From: Escherichia coli O157 typing phage 14
Sequence record: KP869112
Reading direction: 5' to 3' (one strand)
DNA: 64,000 bases
Shown here one piece after another: positions 6,242-39,304 of this stretch (position 1 is its first letter; the number at the start of each line of letters is the position of its first letter). Below the pieces are notes generated by a model. It was not told the DNA's origin and did no database searches. It saw nothing but the letters and a program-made list of their open reading frames with translations. The position numbers and the translations under genes were made by a program.

Positions 6242-7363
6242 TTAGATAAAACGCTTGAACATAGAAGGTGATGAGATTGATGGAATCACACAAGGGAGTG
6301 CTACCTCCTCTTTCTCCAGGAAATTAATCGCAGAAGCTACACAGTCGGCCCAGTCGTCTTTTCTGTTAAATGTTGATCTTTCCCCGTTGAATTTTTCAAG
6401 TTCAGTCAGAAATGCTTCCAGAGTATCAGGATGGAAACTGGATTTTACAATCCTCACCATTCCTTGTTGTGCAAGATTGGCAAAAGGTGAGAACCTTGTC
6501 AGTTTAGATTTGTTGGAAGGCATTGGGTCTTCTTCAACCCTGAACCCTTCGGCGAGCAAGGATCTGGATGAGGTTAAGAACTCACTCTTACCTGCCTGAC
6601 CAGGGTCCACAGAGAATACGATTATGCAATCATCACCATCAAACTGCGCCTGTTTCCTGATGATCACATCTCGTTCACCAGCCTTTTTACAGAACTTGCC
6701 TTCCAGACCTGTGGAATACCTCCCGTCATCCACGTTCTCAGGACAATAATCACCGGACAGGTAATAAAAGCCGTCGCTATCTTTACTTACCTTAATACTG
6801 GCGGTAAAGTCAGGAAATTTATTACCGGAAGTTCTCTCGGTTCCTGCCTTATCCCATGCCCTGCAAGATACTGATCCAAGGGGTACTCTATCGGCATCAC
6901 GAAGGAAAGATCTTTGAAAATAGTTTGCACCCTCAGGCTTTGCAAACCAGTTGCCATGAAGAAGCTGGGCTTTTTCAAGCTCGGGCAGACCTTCAAGAAA
7001 AGCAAGGTATTCTGGGTTGTCTCTTAAGCAGACAGGATTATCGAATATTGTTGCTCCTATAAACGAGAATGACAACGGTCTTGGCTTGATCTCCACACCC
7101 AGCCCGTTAACCGTGGTGTATTTCTCTATCAACTCTTCTTTGGAGTCTCCCCATATAAATTCACCGTCGCGTCGGATAAAATATCTTTTCTTACCGCATT
7201 TCTCCGGATCTGGATACCCTTCATCGTCCAACCACCATCTAACCAGTTTGGCAAGCATGTGTTCTGAATCGGGGTTACAGCTGATAACCATTCTTGATGG
7301 ATACTTTGACTGAGATCGCAGACGAGACATCAGATAGTCTATCTGCTCCCATTCGAACTGTGT
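6242..7363 (-). CDS. terL: terminase large subunit, exon 2 (nuclease domain)
   Basis: Reading frame is open upstream of the annotated ATG back to 7363 (TQFEWEQIDYLMSRLRS...MVISCNPD); joins in frame to exon 1 after removal of intron 7364-8246. Confidence 0.75.
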   Translation of the reverse strand, partial: TQFEWEQIDYLMSRLRSQSKYPSRMVISCNPDSEHMLAKLVRWWLDDEGYPDPEKCGKKRYFIRRDGEFIWGDSKEELIEKYTTVNGLGVEIKPRPLSFSFIGATIFDNPVCLRDNPEYLAFLEGLPELEKAQLLHGNWFAKPEGANYFQRSFLRDADRVPLGSVSCRAWDKAGTERTSGNKFPDFTASIKVSKDSDGFYYLSGDYCPENVDDGRYSTGLEGKFCKKAGERDVIIRKQAQFDGDDCIIVFSVDPGQAGKSEFLTSSRSLLAEGFRVEEDPMPSNKSKLTRFSPFANLAQQGMVRIVKSSFHPDTLEAFLTELEKFNGERSTFNRKDDWADCVASAINFLEKEEVALPCVIPSISSPSMFKRFI

Positions 7364-8246
7364 CGTTTATGTTCGGGCAAGGTCGCTAGTCTTGCCCCGC
7401 CATTTTCAGGCAGCTGCATGTCTCCATGCAGACCAGACTATATCTTATGAATGTGTAAATACTCTGCCGCTCTAAGAATAGTTTCCTCATCTTCTTGGAA
7501 GAAACCTAAAGCTCTGTTGCATTTATCACAAAGCAACCCTCTTACAGCACCAGTTTTATGGTCATGATCAACACAAAAGAAATCTCTGTACCCTTGCGTC
7601 CTATACTCATTAAGAGATATTCTACAAATGGCACACTTATGATCTTGATCTGAGAGTAGACGATAGTATTCATCTTTTGTTATGTGAAATTTCTTCTCAA
7701 TCTGATAAAACTTTTCACACATCTTACACCTGTTCGTAACCAGATATACTTTACCATAGTCACGTTTTGTGTAAAAACTATCAGCGAGCATACTTTCATG
7801 ACAAGATTTGCATTCAAAAAGTTCACCTTTCTTCAGCAAGTCTTGAATAAACAATGCTGCGTCATCTCTCTTAACCATATTTTTGTTTTTACGAGATCCA
7901 CCCTTCCTGTAGTACATATAGCATTCCTTGCATGTGCCTGAGTATCCATCCTTGCTCTCAGATGATAAAAAGAAATCATCAATAGGCAGAACTCTTTGGC
8001 AATCCATACATTTTTTAGTATTACACATTCACCCTCCCGTTTCGAATCGCTTGATTCTACGTCTTTCGACTAGTCGTTGAACGTTCATCCTCTCGGATGC
8101 TTCGCTGCGGATTATCTAAATTAACACACTGTTACCATACCTTCGATCTCTCTTCGAAGCCTCTATTATGTTACCATAACAGGTTGGTGGTGTCAATAAT
8201 AAAGATTTCCCCGCAATTAGGGAGGTTTTACGAGAGCTACAAATTA
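7364..8246 (-). mobile_element. group I self-splicing intron interrupting terL
   Basis: On the minus-strand RNA all four conserved group I elements are present: P AAUUGCGGGGAAA (plus 8206-8218), Q AAUCCGCAGC (8104-8113), R GUUCAACGACUA (8071-8082), S AAGAUAUAGUCU (7435-7446). Exon 1 ends GAGGGU and pairs with intron GCUCUC as a P1 helix with U.G at the splice site; intron ends in G. Confidence 0.8.
7438..8028 (-). CDS. intron-encoded endonuclease VII-family (HNH-type) homing endonuclease
   Basis: 196 aa with CVDHDHKTGAVRGLLCDKCNRALG (the DHDH...RGLLC..CN signature of T4 endonuclease VII-like nucleases) and Cys-rich N-terminus; ORF lies between intron elements R and S and its last codons overlap S. 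Confidence 0.75.
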   Translation of the reverse strand: MCNTKKCMDCQRVLPIDDFFLSSESKDGYSGTCKECYMYYRKGGSRKNKNMVKRDDAALFIQDLLKKGELFECKSCHESMLADSFYTKRDYGKVYLVTNRCKMCEKFYQIEKKFHITKDEYYRLLSDQDHKCAICRISLNEYRTQGYRDFFCVDHDHKTGAVRGLLCDKCNRALGFFQEDEETILRAAEYLHIHKI

Positions 8247-33254: not shown

Positions 33255-33533
33255 ATGAGCTGTGAAAAATCTTTTTTCTTTATTATTTACGGTAAAGATA
33301 ACTGCCCACATTGTGTAAGAGCAAAAGAATTTGCAGTCAGTAAGGGTCTGCCTTTTGTATATAAGACACTTGGCGAGGGTTACACAAAAGAAGAGCTTAT
33401 TGAGAAGTGCAGTCCAATCGTACCCAGAACGTTGCCGCAGATCTTCTTAGAAAGTAATCTTGAAAGTGTCCATATAGGCGGTGCCGACGATTTCATCTCT
33501 TTTGTTAAGAATGGTTTTGGAGAGAAAAAGTGA
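33255..33533 (+). CDS. glutaredoxin-like protein (NrdH/Grx)
   Basis: CPHC active-site motif near the N-terminus; sits between nrdB and nrdD. Confidence 0.7.
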   Translation: MSCEKSFFFIIYGKDNCPHCVRAKEFAVSKGLPFVYKTLGEGYTKEELIEKCSPIVPRTLPQIFLESNLESVHIGGADDFISFVKNGFGEKK

Positions 33534-35653
33534 AAGTTGTAAAACGGGACGGTAGAGAAGAGGTCTATAACGGAATTAAGGTGATCAAGGCGGCAGAGTC
33601 CGCCTTACTTGAGTCTGGACATACTGAAGAAGAAGCTTACCGGATCGCCTGCGCGGTTAATGAAGTTGTTGCTAACAATCTACCAACCGACCAGTGCACG
33701 ATCTCTGTAAAAAATATCCATATCCTTGTTGAAGACGCTCTTATGGATATGGGTTTAAAATGTGCAGCCAGAGAATACATCCAGTATAGGCAGACAAGAG
33801 ATAATAACAGAGAGGCAGGTGGAAAACTGCTTGCAGATATTAGTGGCTTCTTGGATCGCACTTGTGATGAATTTACAAAAGAAAACGCAAATAAGCCTAC
33901 CAATCATGTACACACTCATCGTGACCTGCTTGCAGGCATCCTTAGCAAACACCTTGCATCAACACAGATCCTGCCAGACCGTGTCTCAGAAGAGCACAAT
34001 AGAGGCTTCATCCATGTGCATGATCTTGACTACTTGATCAGTCCGTTAACAAACTGTTGTTTGGTAAATTATCCAGATATGTTGGAAAACGGATTCAACA
34101 TTGGTAACGCCCATGTCAGTAAGCCTAAGTCAATAGGGGTTGCAACAACAATCCTTAGCCAAATCTCTAGTGCAGTAGCTAGTGCTCAATATGGGGGTCA
34201 GACTATGAGCCATATTGATCATTATCTGGCACAGTATGCTGAAGCGACCTATGAGAAGAACCTTAAATTTTGCCAGGAACATTGGTTGCCAGATGCTGAG
34301 ACTGTTGCAATGCAAATGACAGATAAAGACGTATTTGACAGCATGCAGACTTTGCTCTATCAAATCAATACGTTAACTTCTGTCAACGGGCAAACTCCAT
34401 TCATCACATTAAGTTTAGGACTGGATACCTCGGTCTTTGGTAGAATGATTACCAAAAATTACTTGAAAGTCCACAAAATGGGTCTTGGTGAAGAACGTAT
34501 CACACCTGTGTTCCCTAAAGTGCTATTCTTCCTAGAAGAGGGTGTCAACATGAACCCTGGAGATCCTAACTATGATTTGAAACGATTAGCTCTGGAATGC
34601 TCTGCAGAGCGGATTTATCCTGACTTTGTTTCTGTTCCACTAAATCGTAAAGTGACAGGCTCGACAGATGGTAAAGTAACGAGCATGGGTTGCCGGAGTT
34701 TTCTTAGCAAATATAATGACTTGGAAACAGGCGAGGAGAAATACCTTGGCAGATTTAACTTAGGCGTTGTTAGCCTTAACCTACCAATGATTGCGGCAAA
34801 AGCTAAAACGGAAGGTGTTGATTTCTTTGCAGTTCTTGACGAATACCTGGATCTTGCATACGAGGCTCACCTTGTAAGGGTTAACCGTCTAAAAGGAACA
34901 AAGGCAGGGCAGAACCCTATCATGTGGTGTGAAGGCGCTCTTGCTCGCCTGGATCCTGAAGAGAGTATTGATAAACTCTTCTATGACGGGTACGCTTCCA
35001 TCAGTATTGGGTATATTGGTGTGTATGAAACCTGTCAGATTTTGGGCAGGGAGGGTGACAAGGCTTTAGCTCTTGGAATACTTCAGCACATGAGAGATGC
35101 TTGTGAGCGATACAAGAAGGAAAGTAGACTAGCGTTTAGCTTGTACGGCACCCCTTCTGAGAGTCTATGCTATAAAGCTGCAACCTGTCTGGATCGTGAA
35201 TATCCCGAAGTGTTGAAGCACGAGCATGAATATCTCACCAACAGTTTCCATCAGCCAGTATGGATCAATAGCTCTCCTTTTGATAAGTGGGAGTATGAGG
35301 AAGGTTTTGCTATGATCTCCTCTGGTGGCAACATCGGATATGTAGAGACACCAAATCTGAAAAACAACTTAGATGCTTTAGAGGCTCTTGTTGACTTCGG
35401 GTATAAACACATTATGTATTTTGGTATTAACCAACCTGTGGATAAATGTCTCAAGTGTGGTTTCTCTGGTGAGTTTAGTGCAACAGCTAAAGGCTTTGTA
35501 TGCCCAGAGTGTGGAAACCATGAAGAGGGAACGATCAGTGTAATTCGACGTGTGTCTGGATACCTTTCCAGTCCTAACTCCCGTCCTTATAATAAAGGTA
35601 AGCAAGCGGAAGTTATCGAGCGAGTTAAGCACTATGGAAGTTGTAGTTGCTGA
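33530..35653 (+). CDS. nrdD: anaerobic ribonucleoside-triphosphate reductase
   Basis: 707 aa; C-terminal glycyl-radical motif RRVSGYL and Zn site CLKCG...CPECG; GTG start overlapping the upstream stop. Confidence 0.85.
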   Translation: MKVVKRDGREEVYNGIKVIKAAESALLESGHTEEEAYRIACAVNEVVANNLPTDQCTISVKNIHILVEDALMDMGLKCAAREYIQYRQTRDNNREAGGKLLADISGFLDRTCDEFTKENANKPTNHVHTHRDLLAGILSKHLASTQILPDRVSEEHNRGFIHVHDLDYLISPLTNCCLVNYPDMLENGFNIGNAHVSKPKSIGVATTILSQISSAVASAQYGGQTMSHIDHYLAQYAEATYEKNLKFCQEHWLPDAETVAMQMTDKDVFDSMQTLLYQINTLTSVNGQTPFITLSLGLDTSVFGRMITKNYLKVHKMGLGEERITPVFPKVLFFLEEGVNMNPGDPNYDLKRLALECSAERIYPDFVSVPLNRKVTGSTDGKVTSMGCRSFLSKYNDLETGEEKYLGRFNLGVVSLNLPMIAAKAKTEGVDFFAVLDEYLDLAYEAHLVRVNRLKGTKAGQNPIMWCEGALARLDPEESIDKLFYDGYASISIGYIGVYETCQILGREGDKALALGILQHMRDACERYKKESRLAFSLYGTPSESLCYKAATCLDREYPEVLKHEHEYLTNSFHQPVWINSSPFDKWEYEEGFAMISSGGNIGYVETPNLKNNLDALEALVDFGYKHIMYFGINQPVDKCLKCGFSGEFSATAKGFVCPECGNHEEGTISVIRRVSGYLSSPNSRPYNKGKQAEVIERVKHYGSCSC

Positions 35654-35719
35654 TACTTGACAAAAGCCACAAGGATGTGGCACCCTTAGTTCAAAGACGA
35701 GAACTAAGAGGATTCAGCA

Positions 35720-36880
35720 GTGAGAAAACTTACAACCGAAGATTTTATAGAGGGGGCGAAAGCAGTTCATGGTGATAAATATGATTATTCCAAAGTCAAA
35801 TATGTGGGTGCACACACCAAGGTTGTAATTATATGCCCTGAGCATGGAGAATTTAAGAAAACTCTTGGAGATCACCTCCGTAAAAAACAGGGTTGCCCAA
35901 AATGTCAGATTGAAGCAGAAAGAGCGGCTTCTGCTGAAAAATTTAAAGCGGAGGCCGAGGCTAAGTATAATTATAAATATGATTACTCTAAGGTAGAGTA
36001 TGTAAATGCTAAAACTAAAGTTGTGATTGTTTGTCCTGTTCACGGCGAGTTTGAGCAAAAGCCTTATAACCATCTCCGCGAGGGGGGTTGCCGTAAGTGT
36101 GGAGGGACTGAGAGAAAGACTACTGAAGAGTGGATCGCTGAGGCAAAAGCGCTTCATGGCGATAAGTATGATTACTCTCTTGTAAATTATAAAACCTGTA
36201 ATGATAAAGTGGAGATAATCTGTAATACATGTGGTGCTCACTTCCCACAAAGACCTCATGACCATGCACCAAGTGGAAACGGTTGCCCCGAGTGCGGGAA
36301 GAAGAAGGTGGCCGAGGTTAGTAGGAAGACGCAGAGAAAGAAAGCATCTGAGGTAGCTAAAAGGTTTGAGGCAAGAGCCAGAGCTATCCATAAAGATAAA
36401 TACGATTATTCCAGGGTGGAATATGTTAATAGGGAGACAGAGGTCACTATCATCTGTCCGATTCACGGGGAGTTCACACAAAAACCGTTTGTCCACATCA
36501 ACCAAAAAGCTGGCTGTCAAAAATGTGCTAAAGTCGGCTTCTTATCTCATGAACATGGTAGCCTTTATATCATGGTTGACGATCTGGAAGTACCAACTAT
36601 GATGAAAATTGGTGTGAGTGTCCGGGTAGATGAACGAAGAAAAGATGTGTTAAAAAGAGCTAAAAAAGCTGGTGCTAGATTCTCTGATCTACATGTTATA
36701 AAAACTTGGGAAGGAACAACAGACGACATGCAAACTTTAGAAAAAGCTATGCACCAAGCCTTGAGCCAATACAAAATCAACTTCACAGAGAAGTTTGATG
36801 GCTGTCGAGAGTTCTTCTACTACAGACCGGAGGTATTCGAGCTAGTAGAAGAACATTTGAAGAAATTTGCTAATAAATAA
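35720..36880 (+). CDS. T5orf172 (GIY-YIG-like) domain protein with four tandem zinc-binding modules; candidate free-standing homing endonuclease
   Basis: Four repeats of HGDKYDYS.V.YV....KV.I.CP.HGEF...P..H....GC.KC, then a C-terminal SLYIMVDD...KIGVSVRVDERR region fitting the T5orf172 pattern; inserted between nrdD and nrdG. Confidence 0.55.
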   Translation: MRKLTTEDFIEGAKAVHGDKYDYSKVKYVGAHTKVVIICPEHGEFKKTLGDHLRKKQGCPKCQIEAERAASAEKFKAEAEAKYNYKYDYSKVEYVNAKTKVVIVCPVHGEFEQKPYNHLREGGCRKCGGTERKTTEEWIAEAKALHGDKYDYSLVNYKTCNDKVEIICNTCGAHFPQRPHDHAPSGNGCPECGKKKVAEVSRKTQRKKASEVAKRFEARARAIHKDKYDYSRVEYVNRETEVTIICPIHGEFTQKPFVHINQKAGCQKCAKVGFLSHEHGSLYIMVDDLEVPTMMKIGVSVRVDERRKDVLKRAKKAGARFSDLHVIKTWEGTTDDMQTLEKAMHQALSQYKINFTEKFDGCREFFYYRPEVFELVEEHLKKFANK

Positions 36881-36941
36881 TAACACACAAAGGGCCAGCT
36901 TTATTCTAGCCCTTCAGTCCGTTGTAAATTAAGGAGTTGTT

Positions 36942-37067
36942 ATGTCATCTGGTGGCTTTAAAGTAAAAATTTGTAAACACTGCGGTTGTAAGTGCAACCT
37001 TCGTTGGTGCAAGTCACTAGACGATTTTATTTGGCATTGCCCTAAATGTGATGCGGAGTATCTATGA
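36942..37067 (+). CDS. small Cys-rich zinc-ribbon protein (41 aa)
   Basis: AAGGAG SD 6 nt upstream of ATG; CKHCGCKC...CPKCD; stop overlaps the nrdG start (ATGA). Below the 60-aa ORF-track cutoff. Confidence 0.45.
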   Translation: MSSGGFKVKICKHCGCKCNLRWCKSLDDFIWHCPKCDAEYL

Positions 37068-37537
37068 ACATTGTCGGATACACAGAAATATCTTACACCG
37101 AAGGGCCAGGTATTAGAACTGCCTTGTGGGTATCTGGGTGCCCACACGCTTGCCCTGGTTGCTTTAATCAGGCATTTTGGTCAAAAGATAAGGGGAGGGA
37201 GTTCACTGAAGAAGATTTGCAAAAAATCTTGTCAGATTTAGATAACCCGTCTGTGTGCGGTATCTCTCTGCTGGGTGGAGAACCCTTAGCCTACTATAAT
37301 GAGCCAGATATTATTAGCCTGATGGAGAAAATTAAGGAAAAATTTGGTGACAAGAAAACTATTCTTGTATATACTGGGTTCACATTTGATCATATCTCTA
37401 GTGATGTTCTTAAACTGGCTGATATCATCATTGACGGTAAGTATGTAAAAGATTTACCAACCAAGAAACCGTTCCGAGGTAGCGATAACCAAAGAATGTT
37501 TAAAAAAGTAGCAGGCGGTTGGGTTCAGGTAGACTAG
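37064..37537 (+). CDS. nrdG: anaerobic ribonucleotide reductase activating protein (radical SAM)
   Basis: CPHACPGC (Cx3Cx2C) radical-SAM cluster motif. Confidence 0.8.
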   Translation: MNIVGYTEISYTEGPGIRTALWVSGCPHACPGCFNQAFWSKDKGREFTEEDLQKILSDLDNPSVCGISLLGGEPLAYYNEPDIISLMEKIKEKFGDKKTILVYTGFTFDHISSDVLKLADIIIDGKYVKDLPTKKPFRGSDNQRMFKKVAGGWVQVD

Positions 37538-37540
37538 TTG

Positions 37541-37570
37541 TTGACAAAGCTTTGTTTAGATAGGTATAAT
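37541..37570 (+). promoter_or_regulatory. sigma70-like promoter
   Basis: TTGACA, 18-nt spacer, TATAAT, upstream of the small basic ORF. Confidence 0.55.
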
Positions 37571-37601
37571 TATCGTAAAATGAAAGCAGAGGAGGTGCCA
37601 A

Positions 37602-37715
37602 ATGGCTAAAAAAGCCTTGAAGAAGGCGTACAAAAAAGAGATTGCGCTTGAGCTTAAGAAAAAACACAAGCGTGAAAAGAAATATCATGAGGATGAAGAG
37701 GGGGTGCAACAGTGA
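37602..37715 (+). CDS. small Lys-rich protein (37 aa)
   Basis: AGGAGG SD then ATG; MAKKALKKAYKKEIALELKKKHKREKKYHEDEEGVQQ; below ORF-track cutoff. Confidence 0.4.
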   Translation: MAKKALKKAYKKEIALELKKKHKREKKYHEDEEGVQQ

Positions 37716-38100: not shown

Positions 38101-38889
38101 ATGGGTCGAGCTAAAGAAACAAAACGCATGCGTGATGAAGCTAGAGAGGCTCGCAAATCTGATCGCCTGCGTAAGGCTGCTGAGAAATTTGCTGACGAAC
38201 GAGAGCACACCGCTCCAGCTCTCCGACCAATGAATAAAAAGCAGCAAAAGTATCTTGATTATCTAGGGTCACGTAAGATTATTATTGTAAACGGTGTGTT
38301 TGGATCCGGTAAGACATTCATGGCATCTGCATATGCAGGTGATCTTCTGCGTAAGAATGAGATTGATAAGATCATTGTTGCACGTCCTTATGTACAGACC
38401 GGAAAATCAAGCGGATACAAACCGGGAACGTCAATGCAGAAGCTTTGGCCTTACCTTCGTAGTATGATGGACACTATTTGTCGTCGTGTTGGCAAAGGTG
38501 CTTTTGCCGCAATGCTGGGAGATGGTCAGAACAGCCGTATCGAGATTTGTGAAGTTGAAAGCATTCGTGGTCGTAGTTTCGATGAGCGATGCTTTGTCCT
38601 GATTGACGAGGCACAGCAAACTAACCCTGAAGAAATGTTGTCAATTATTACAAGGATCTCTGATCAGGCCACCCTTGTAATTATGGGTGATAATAGTCAA
38701 CGTGACATCCCTGGTAAATCTGGCCTTGCATGGGTGACGGATTTCTTTACTCGTCATCCAGATCCTGAGGTTGGAATGATCAGCTTTGATAGTCCAGACG
38801 ATGTCGTTCGTTCCGGGTTGGGCCGTCAGATTGCTCTCAATCTTATAGAGGATCGTGCAAATCATATTTGGACCCCTGTTTCCGAGTAA
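38101..38889 (+). CDS. phoH: PhoH-like ATPase
   Basis: Walker A GVFGSGKTFMA, Walker B FVLIDEAQ. Confidence 0.8.
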   Translation: MGRAKETKRMRDEAREARKSDRLRKAAEKFADEREHTAPALRPMNKKQQKYLDYLGSRKIIIVNGVFGSGKTFMASAYAGDLLRKNEIDKIIVARPYVQTGKSSGYKPGTSMQKLWPYLRSMMDTICRRVGKGAFAAMLGDGQNSRIEICEVESIRGRSFDERCFVLIDEAQQTNPEEMLSIITRISDQATLVIMGDNSQRDIPGKSGLAWVTDFFTRHPDPEVGMISFDSPDDVVRSGLGRQIALNLIEDRANHIWTPVSE

Positions 38890-38933
38890 TACAGAAGGGT
38901 GGTTATTCCACCCTTAAATATCTAAAACAGTTG

Positions 38934-38962
38934 TTGACAAACAGGTAAGCTTTAGATATTAT
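38934..38962 (+). promoter_or_regulatory. sigma70-like promoter
   Basis: TTGACA, 17-nt spacer, TATTAT. Confidence 0.45.
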
Positions 38963-38992
38963 TATCGGACAAGACAAGTAGAAGGAGATAGT

Positions 38993-39304
38993 ATGGCTAC
39001 AATACAAGAAAGACTGAATAAAATATACTGCCTGTTTGTCTATAAAGGCGAGACAATTTTGGCAAATAAAGGATACAAGAATGTGTGGATCAAGGACAGT
39101 GGTGGTAATATAATCAACTTAGCGTTGCTACGTGAGCGCCGACACAGATTCTTTATCGAGTCTCGGATTATTGAAAGCAGCACCTGCTACAGAACCGGCG
39201 ATAAAGTAATTGTTGACAATGATACGTGGTATGTGGTAGACTGGCAATCATTGAGCTGTGATGCTTCTGACAATCGTAAGTATTCCCTAGTGATTGCTAA
39301 ATAA
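38993..39304 (+). CDS. hypothetical protein
   Basis: 103-aa ORF; no motif recognised. Confidence 0.4.
   Translation: MATIQERLNKIYCLFVYKGETILANKGYKNVWIKDSGGNIINLALLRERRHRFFIESRIIESSTCYRTGDKVIVDNDTWYVVDWQSLSCDASDNRKYSLVIAK

Follow-up and report, generated by a model that had tools for sequence, protein, structure and literature searches.

The 386-aa open reading frame between the anaerobic ribonucleotide reductase genes nrdD and nrdG of Escherichia coli O157 typing phage 14 (KP869112) is most probably a free-standing homing endonuclease gene (HEG) of the T5orf172 branch of the GIY-YIG nucleases, carried on a 1.3-kb cassette in the nrdD-nrdG region. We refer to the whole 64,000-nt stretch that was analysed as the window. 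The sporadic distribution of the gene, the conservation of its cassette, the fold and motif of its nuclease domain and the existence of decayed copies all support this reading, and every computable consequence of the homing endonuclease function put forward in the original prediction (absence from most relatives, a conserved and bounded cassette, a nuclease motif and decayed copies) was borne out. In the proposed mechanism, four zinc modules arranged as beads on a string would jointly recognize an extended stretch of DNA within the nrdD-nrdG region of cassette-less phages, and the T5orf172 domain at the C-terminus, in which Arg306 and Glu341 would be catalytic, would cut near the bound site. 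During a mixed infection, the break would be repaired by recombination from the cassette-bearing genome, and the recipient would thereby acquire the cassette together with part of the DNA beside it. We infer the cleavage activity, the position of the target and homing itself from what is known of the family.

Locus and genomic context

The gene (positions 35720-36880, + strand) begins with a GTG codon, is preceded by a Shine-Dalgarno sequence (AAGAGGA, 35706-35712) and matches exactly the 386-aa gene that the original prediction described as separating nrdD and nrdG. Its left neighbour is nrdD, encoding the anaerobic ribonucleotide reductase (33530-35653, +; Pfam NRDD at 6.3e-161, Gly_radical and ATP-cone), and its right neighbour is nrdG, encoding the activating enzyme (37064-37537, +; Pfam Fer4_12 at 9.4e-43, Radical_SAM). 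The wider neighbourhood comprises a glutaredoxin gene, nrdA and nrdB upstream of nrdD and phoH downstream of nrdG. The start of nrdG is overlapped by a small Cys-rich ORF of 41 aa (36942-37067, +; phrog_20137), and the inserted gene is located between nrdD and this small ORF. The region shares 94-98% identity with rV5-like coliphages, which belong to the genus Vequintavirus, and the window is a Vequintavirus (rV5-like) genome.

The gene is intergenic, has its own ribosome-binding site and lies outside any intron or intein. In the window nrdD is uninterrupted; several relatives carry an insertion in nrdD at a point corresponding to 34389|34390 (blastn against FFH2, ECML-10, WalterGehring and SophiaRose). 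An intron context was considered and rejected, as no Rfam match was found in 33400-37700 at E<=1 and the insertions that interrupt nrdD in FFH2 and SophiaRose gave no group I intron match at the gathering level. A tblastn search detected no paralogue of the 386-aa gene elsewhere in the 64-kb window.

Cassette boundaries and distribution among relatives

Homology with phage FFH2 stops at 35682 and resumes at 36981, which delimits a putative mobile cassette of 1298 bp (35683-36980, +) that comprises the HEG plus 39 nt from the 5' end of the small ORF and replaces 64 bp of the empty-site relatives. In these relatives, nrdD and nrdG are separated by a 176-bp spacer with a zinc-ribbon-like ORF of 38 aa, corresponding to the 41-aa ORF of the window, in which the first ~13 codons fall within the cassette and form a divergent variant with three extra codons. 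The earlier view that nrdD and nrdG are normally adjacent has to be amended, because even in relatives without the inserted gene a spacer with a small ORF lies between them.

With the intact empty junction as a query (in FFH2 or rV5 it contains ...GCCACAAGGATGTGGCATATTATTGACACACAGTGAGCTAGGAGGTACAGTATGTC...), uninterrupted junctions were found in ~92 GenBank records. The same insert as in the window was present in one of 120 records matching the flanks, namely that of SophiaRose, whose copy is annotated in GenBank as "putative GIY-YIG nuclease family protein", and four other alleles occupied the same insertion point in ~22 records. The window-type gene is variably present at this junction and clearly not conserved in all relatives, which would have spoken against the original prediction; its presence among sequenced relatives is ~1-2%. 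This pattern bears directly on whether the protein might be an accessory subunit or regulator of the anaerobic ribonucleotide reductase that is functionally placed between nrdD and nrdG. The position within the nrd cluster would fit such a role; however, the close relatives with an empty junction keep both nrdD and nrdG, the domains of the protein are those of a nuclease and zinc fingers, and homologues that share its architecture turn up in many unrelated settings (808 phage records), including beside terminase and capsid genes (PMC10448857). Given the presence/absence pattern, we consider an accessory role exceedingly improbable and effectively refuted.

The cassette differs from its SophiaRose counterpart at 5 of 1298 positions (99.61% identical), while the two flanks differ at 66 of 1293 and 82 of 1399 positions (94.9% and 94.1% identical, respectively; Fisher p 5e-20 for cassette versus flank divergence). 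Such near-identity of the cassette in two genomes whose flanks are 5-6% diverged indicates recent lateral transfer, and the sequence data point to a recent arrival of the cassette between the two ribonucleotide-reductase genes. All five differences map to the zinc modules, four being non-synonymous.

Decayed copies were also recovered. In public assemblies, P0002 carries a 327-aa truncated copy of the same protein that is frameshifted in the nuclease domain, and the CM1 and PMBT16 copies of a sister allele (the I29 type, described below) are annotated as split or shortened ORFs, showing that a decay phase occurs in this lineage. These copies leave room for the window gene being a spent homing endonuclease gene whose frame looks intact, whose cleavage activity has been lost and which persists as a passenger until it decays. 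We regard this as very unlikely for the window copy, which is full length and retains every conserved nuclease residue, and the near-identical cassette between diverged flanks argues for a recent successful transfer.

The C-terminal nuclease domain

The C-terminal part of the protein (aa 270-386; 36527-36877, +) had been described as a T5orf172/GIY-YIG-like region, and this was confirmed by two Pfam families that exceeded their cut-offs over residues 282-384, i.e., T5orf172 (PF10544; 26.6 bits versus 20) and MUG113 (31.2 bits versus 22.3). The protein also matched PHROG 681 ("endonuclease") at 1e-80. The conserved nuclease residues are Y283, K296-I-G298, R306, E341, G361, E364 and F366: K296, G298, E341, G361, E364 and F366 were invariant in 34 aligned homologues, Y283 was invariant in the 13 full domains aligned, and R306 was conserved in at least 70%. 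The tyrosine of the first motif is present (L-Y283-I), and in the second motif (K296-I-G298) a lysine that is invariant in the family replaces the tyrosine, which is typical of T5orf172 and not of canonical GIY-YIG domains. No invariant His or Tyr was seen in helix 1 among the aligned homologues. R306 follows G298 by eight residues, the same spacing as between G19 and R27 in I-TevI.

An hhalign comparison with ICP1 Odn (gp88, origin-directed nuclease) gave a probability of 81% (E 1.2e-5) and placed E341 on Odn E180, and the profile alignment also paired L-Y283-I, K296-I-G298, R306 and E364-F-F with their counterparts in Odn. The two proteins thus share the T5orf172 domain with Y283, K296-I-G298, R306, E341 and E364 aligned, as well as a lysine in the second motif (K-V-G in Odn) and the lack of an invariant His/Tyr in helix 1. 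The E180A substitution in Odn abolishes cleavage both in vivo and in vitro (PMC8263062). Because E341 is aligned to this residue and the motif residues are invariant, the nuclease domain of the window protein looks catalytically competent as far as sequence can tell.

Structure prediction was consistent with this assignment. The C-terminal part was poorly modelled in the full-length AF2 model (pLDDT 50-65), and it was modelled well alone with a dedicated alignment (pLDDT 88.9, pTM 0.79), where the predicted structure is a GIY-YIG alpha/beta fold with a three-stranded sheet flanked by helices; the putative catalytic Arg (R306, in helix 1) and Glu (E341, after strand 3) are both in place. Foldseek gave only sub-significant matches to GIY-YIG structures (E 0.09), and the full-length model, searched against PDB, had no match at E<=0.001. 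A PDB sequence search with the C-terminal profile likewise had no meaningful match, including to any solved GIY-YIG structure. The eukaryotic proteins Slx1 and At-HIGLE, at 13% identity, differ from the window protein: they are structure-specific nucleases of DNA repair that end in a RING/PHD finger and work with an Slx4 partner, and their biology is unrelated.

Two further readings of this domain were examined. A role in defence was set aside; PADLOC returned a single weak match (7.7e-4), which covers the nuclease domain and is to a family of candidate status. An anti-satellite nuclease like Odn, the only T5orf172 nuclease shown to cut DNA, would have a satellite-derived RepA_N DNA-binding domain fused to T5orf172. 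Pfam found no RepA_N domain in the window protein, in which the four DUF723/DUF4379 modules take up all of the N-terminal 269 residues.

The zinc-module array

The four tandem modules fill aa 1-62, 63-127, 128-192 and 193-269 and are 36-52% identical to each other in pairwise amino-acid comparisons, which together with two Pfam families above their gathering cut-offs substantiates the four tandem repeats noticed originally. DUF723 (PF05265) matched in three stretches (2.4e-15, 56.6 bits versus a cut-off of 20.9), and DUF4379 (PF14311), described as a "probable treble clef zinc finger", matched in two stretches (8.5e-12, 45.5 bits versus 24.5). The module had not been recognized as a named domain, but it is one: Pfam names it DUF723/DUF4379 (related to CapR). 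Its length had been put at ~45 aa, and this fits the conserved core (H17 to C62, ~46 aa) but not the repeat period, which is 63-78 aa owing to a further helix at the N-terminus of each module. As judged from the sequence, a four-fold repeat of this kind is far beyond chance. At the DNA level, the four copies are spaced by 198, 189 and 234 nt and are 61-71% identical; the repeats are old and not the product of recent duplication.

Each module starts with a helix, which is followed by a beta-hairpin bearing Cx2H (Cx2C in the third module) and by a short helix; a G-C-x2-C knuckle then forms the beginning of the next helix. Module 1 (35720-35905, +) is of the DUF723 type, with C39, H42, C59 and C62 as putative ligands and an AF2 pLDDT of 79-88. 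Module 2 (35906-36100, +; pLDDT 84-90) is of the same type (CPVH...CRKC, putative ligands C105, H108, C124 and C127). Module 3 (36101-36295, +) is a four-Cys variant (CNTC...CPEC, putative ligands C168, C171, C189 and C192) and contains the best DUF4379 stretch (residues 159-194). Module 4 (36296-36526, +) is again of the DUF723 type, with a long helical linker (aa 190-224) and putative ligands C246, H249, C266 and C269. Both zinc knuckles, Cx2[H/C] and Cx2C, are therefore present in all four modules; the CxxH pattern first reported for the repeats applies to modules 1, 2 and 4, and module 3 has CxxC instead. C246, G265, C266 and C269 were nearly invariant in 40 homologues. According to DSSP of the AF2 model, C39 and H42 lie at the turn of a hairpin (strands 34-39 and 43-48), and C59 and C62 at the start of a helix (residues 60-83); in modules 2-4 the DSSP string of the same model places the knuckles in the same way, with pLDDT 80-90. 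A PDB sequence search with the zinc-module region gave no meaningful match to a solved structure.

We propose that these are treble-clef-type modules of the DUF723/DUF4379 kind and relatives of the CapR DNA-binding zinc finger, for which a close relationship with DUF723 and DUF4379 has been reported (PMC10448857) and in which both Cys pairs are needed for DNA binding, as found with Cys-to-Ser mutants (PMC8096241). By analogy, the modules would bind zinc and recognize DNA in a sequence-specific manner. The likeness to CapR, a protein of the Vibrio cholerae PLE satellite, rests on the published relation of the zinc modules (PMC10448857), and CapR differs from the window protein in having a single module and no nuclease domain and in being a transcriptional repressor.

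An allelic series at one insertion point

The alleles that share the insertion point with the window-type gene are the I29 type (19 records, at least 98.7% identity), ECML-10, phiWec189 and WalterGehring, and their nuclease domains are 57-70% identical to that of the window. With A denoting a DUF723-like module, A' its CNTCG variant and B a DUF4379-like module, the array is A-A-A'-A in the window and SophiaRose, A-A-A' in phiWec189, A-A-B in I29 and A141, A-A'-B in WalterGehring and A-B-B-B in ECML-10. The A' module is thus third in the window and phiWec189 and second in WalterGehring. The A' copies of phiWec189 and WalterGehring are 74% identical to each other, and module 3 of the window is 61% identical to module 3 of phiWec189 and 54% identical to module 2 of WalterGehring. 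E. coli genomes and two lambdoid phages, mEp013 and mEp021, carry short relatives with one B module and a 60-74% identical nuclease domain, indicating that the nuclease domain circulates among unrelated coliphages.

In the alleles examined that have a standard nrdD 3' end, the insert starts at the same base after GTGGCA, one nucleotide past the hairpin GCCACAAGGATGTGGC. I29 and A141 have a diverged nrdD 3' end (75% identity over the last 178 nt), which is consistent with co-conversion. The left boundary is the same in all these alleles. Repeated independent insertions and one ancestral invasion, after which the insert diversified in place and was exchanged by way of homologous flanks, are therefore equally likely; the shared boundary could reflect a single ancient insertion with ordinary recombination and not repeated homing.

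A signature of target-site immunity was looked for at the same junctions. Three empty and seven occupied junctions had suggested one in the ribosome-binding site and start of the small ORF (GGTACAGTATGTCTACA versus GGTGCAGTATGTCATCA), which was dropped once five more empty junctions were added, as the empty junctions of Gotham, AlexBoehm and rV5_ev168 carry the "occupied" variant. With this enlarged sample, no immunity substitutions tracking HEG presence were found. The private 5' end of the small ORF occurs only in the window-type allele, where it is located inside the cassette.

It is tempting to extend the modular reading further, such that each module would read a short DNA sub-site more or less independently and the family would constitute a programmable recognition scaffold. 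We consider this strong form unlikely; if true, the scaffold would be comparable to zinc-finger or TALE arrays, and the allelic series would be the material with which to decode it. The idea of a modular array itself is already published for this class (PMC10448857).

Comparison with known homing endonucleases

T5orf172 HEGs were described as a class by Barth, Dunham & Seed in 2023 (PMC10448857), with examples including ICP1 gp53, gp121, gp130, gp165 and gp174 and the HEGs of Vibrio phage Helene. In that study, 87% of T5orf172 HEGs had CapR, DUF723 or DUF4379 zinc fingers, often multiple and arranged as "beads on a string", ribonucleotide reductase genes were found in 33% of the HEG neighbourhoods, and repeat-mediated deletion and domain swapping were reported in Vibrio phages (PMC10448857). 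The window gene shares with these HEGs the N-terminal zinc-finger array and C-terminal T5orf172 nuclease, the free-standing state beside essential genes, and the gain, loss and swapping of modules, and it also resembles them in that nuclease genes were found at boundaries of genetic exchange (PMC10448857). It differs in that its host lineage is Vequintavirus, that the window allele consists of four DUF723-type modules, and that in vequintaviruses a single insertion point holds at least five alleles mixing two module types. Vequintavirus was absent from the main text and from five supplementary files of the 2023 study (PMC10448857), and the window gene is new for the described class in this sense.

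These observations extend the 2023 description, which dealt mainly with Vibrio phages, to a well-sampled coliphage genus and do not overturn current understanding; what the series of five alleles at a single site adds is modest. For annotation, the gene could be given a specific call as a mobile T5orf172 homing endonuclease with cassette boundaries in place of "hypothetical protein" or "GIY-YIG nuclease". The cassette would also explain local mosaicism in the nrd cluster of rV5-like phages, including WalterGehring and AlexBoehm of the BASEL collection, and the multi-allelic hot spot provides a convenient system for T5orf172 homing, its cut sites and the specification of DNA targets by DUF723/DUF4379 arrays.

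A broader likeness is with I-TevI and the T4 Seg proteins, which are built as beads on a string, are free-standing or intron-associated in nucleotide-metabolism loci and spread via double-strand-break repair; the modular design and the nucleotide-metabolism locus are shared with the window gene. In contrast to I-TevI, where the nuclease is N-terminal and is combined with one zinc-finger linker and a helix-turn-helix, the window protein has a C-terminal nuclease and four zinc modules, and its second motif is K-I-G and not Y-I-G. I-TevI, like CapR, acts as a repressor.

Predicted regulatory context of the insertion

A -35-like hexamer (TTGACA; 35657-35662, +) lies just upstream of the cassette and may be part of a promoter. 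In empty-site phages it is followed 18 nt downstream by a -10-like hexamer (CATATT). In the annotation of the Gotham record, a predicted promoter covers precisely this TTGACA-18 nt-CATATT stretch; in the window, the insertion begins within the -10 position (CACCCT). The location of the cassette inside a predicted promoter would suit a domesticated nuclease, i.e., a protein now serving as a weapon against co-infecting phages (marker exclusion) or a satellite, or as a DNA-binding regulator at the nrdG promoter. The T5orf172 domain has been co-opted at least once (in Odn), a CapR-related zinc finger is able to act purely as a repressor, and the non-synonymous changes confined to the zinc modules in the SophiaRose comparison could reflect selection on specificity. 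On balance, however, we think that domestication is unlikely: no RepA_N or other satellite-derived binding domain was detected by Pfam, the PADLOC match is weak, and presence in ~1-2% of sequenced relatives is more in keeping with a selfish than with a beneficial element. A purely repressive role is also not indicated, since the nuclease motif is intact.

A hairpin just 3' of the nrdD stop (GCCACA-AGGA-TGTGGC; 35666-35681, +), identified from the junction alignment and RNA folds, is kept in both HEG-bearing and empty genomes. A second RNA hairpin (CCUUAGUUC...GAACUAAG.GG; 35683-35711, +) is predicted for the first 29 nt of the cassette and would pair most of the Shine-Dalgarno sequence at 35706-35712; the 72-nt leader has a minimum free energy of -21.6 kcal/mol (z -4.4), and none of 200 shuffled sequences folded as well. 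By covering the ribosome-binding site, this predicted hairpin may hold back translation of the nuclease; such pairing was predicted in the window and ECML-10 and not in phiWec189 or WalterGehring.

Mosaicism around the nrdD-nrdG junction

Divergence at this locus extends on both sides of the homing endonuclease gene (HEG). Upstream, the window and SophiaRose, a relative with the same HEG, share only 78% identity over a patch of about 100 bp at 35500-35600, at the 3' end of nrdD, the remainder of which is 95-99% identical between the two; nrdD of I29 and A141 is divergent across this stretch too. The patch may be the footprint of an earlier recombination or co-conversion event beside the HEG site. 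Downstream, the first ~350 bp of nrdG in the records of rV5 (L005) and WalterGehring (L009) are too diverged to be aligned with window 37072-37420, and the spacer 5' of nrdG is likewise too divergent for alignment in both phages. In rV5, two extra small ORFs (gp110 and gp111) lie between a conserved small ORF and nrdG, and, together with the divergence of the nrdG 5' region, these constitute further mosaicism at the junction.

The conserved small ORF itself encodes 41 aa in the window (36942-37067), carries CxxC-type motifs (MSSGGFKVKICKHCGCKCNLRWCKSLDDFIWHCPKCDAEYL) and overlaps the start of nrdG. It is kept, as 38 aa, in every vequintavirus examined. The window-type cassette supplies a 5' end of its own for this ORF, which is divergent in sequence and three codons longer. 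The sole source of its "ribonucleotide reductase" label is phrog_20137.

Other variable sites nearby

A separate insertion point lies inside nrdD, exactly at window 34389|34390, where the window gene is uninterrupted. The insertion there is ~798 bp long in FFH2, ECML-10, and WalterGehring, where it codes for an HNH endonuclease; in SophiaRose it is 257 bp long and contains no ORF. The nrdD gene is annotated as a joined CDS in the BASEL records, which implies an intron; when the FFH2 and SophiaRose insertions were searched against Rfam, no match to a group I intron reached the gathering score. SophiaRose also has a second gene annotated as "GIY-YIG nuclease family protein" (930 bp; 7140-8069 of its record, L001), inserted 3' of phoH. 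The corresponding spot in the window, between phoH and the next ORF (38889-38993), is empty, which makes it a second variable site for HEGs within a few kb of the nrdD-nrdG site.

Modularity of the nuclease and zinc modules

The T5orf172 domain also occurs in a short protein of the temperate lambdoid coliphages mEp021 (L019, 2402-2875) and mEp013 (protein P0138), with 72% nucleotide identity to window 36508-36837, which suggests that the nuclease domain has been exchanged between unrelated coliphage groups. In mEp021, a separate gene for a "zinc-ribbon domain-containing protein" lies immediately upstream. The zinc-module array, for its part, seems to occur together with nucleases of more than one type: many metagenomic matches are long arrays of 5-9 DUF723 modules that lack T5orf172 and have other domains at the end, and the terminal region of one homologue-search match (P0068), read by eye from its sequence, resembles a Vsr/DUF559-type endonuclease.

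Host labels of related records

Eighteen GenBank records (MG0656xx; A141, C12, D1, and others) are named "Campylobacter phage". Over the nrdD-nrdG locus they share 93-97% identity with rV5-like phages of E. coli. One of these records, that of A141, was inspected; it bears the UNVERIFIED flag and assigns the phage to Vequintavirus. Their Campylobacter host labels look unreliable.
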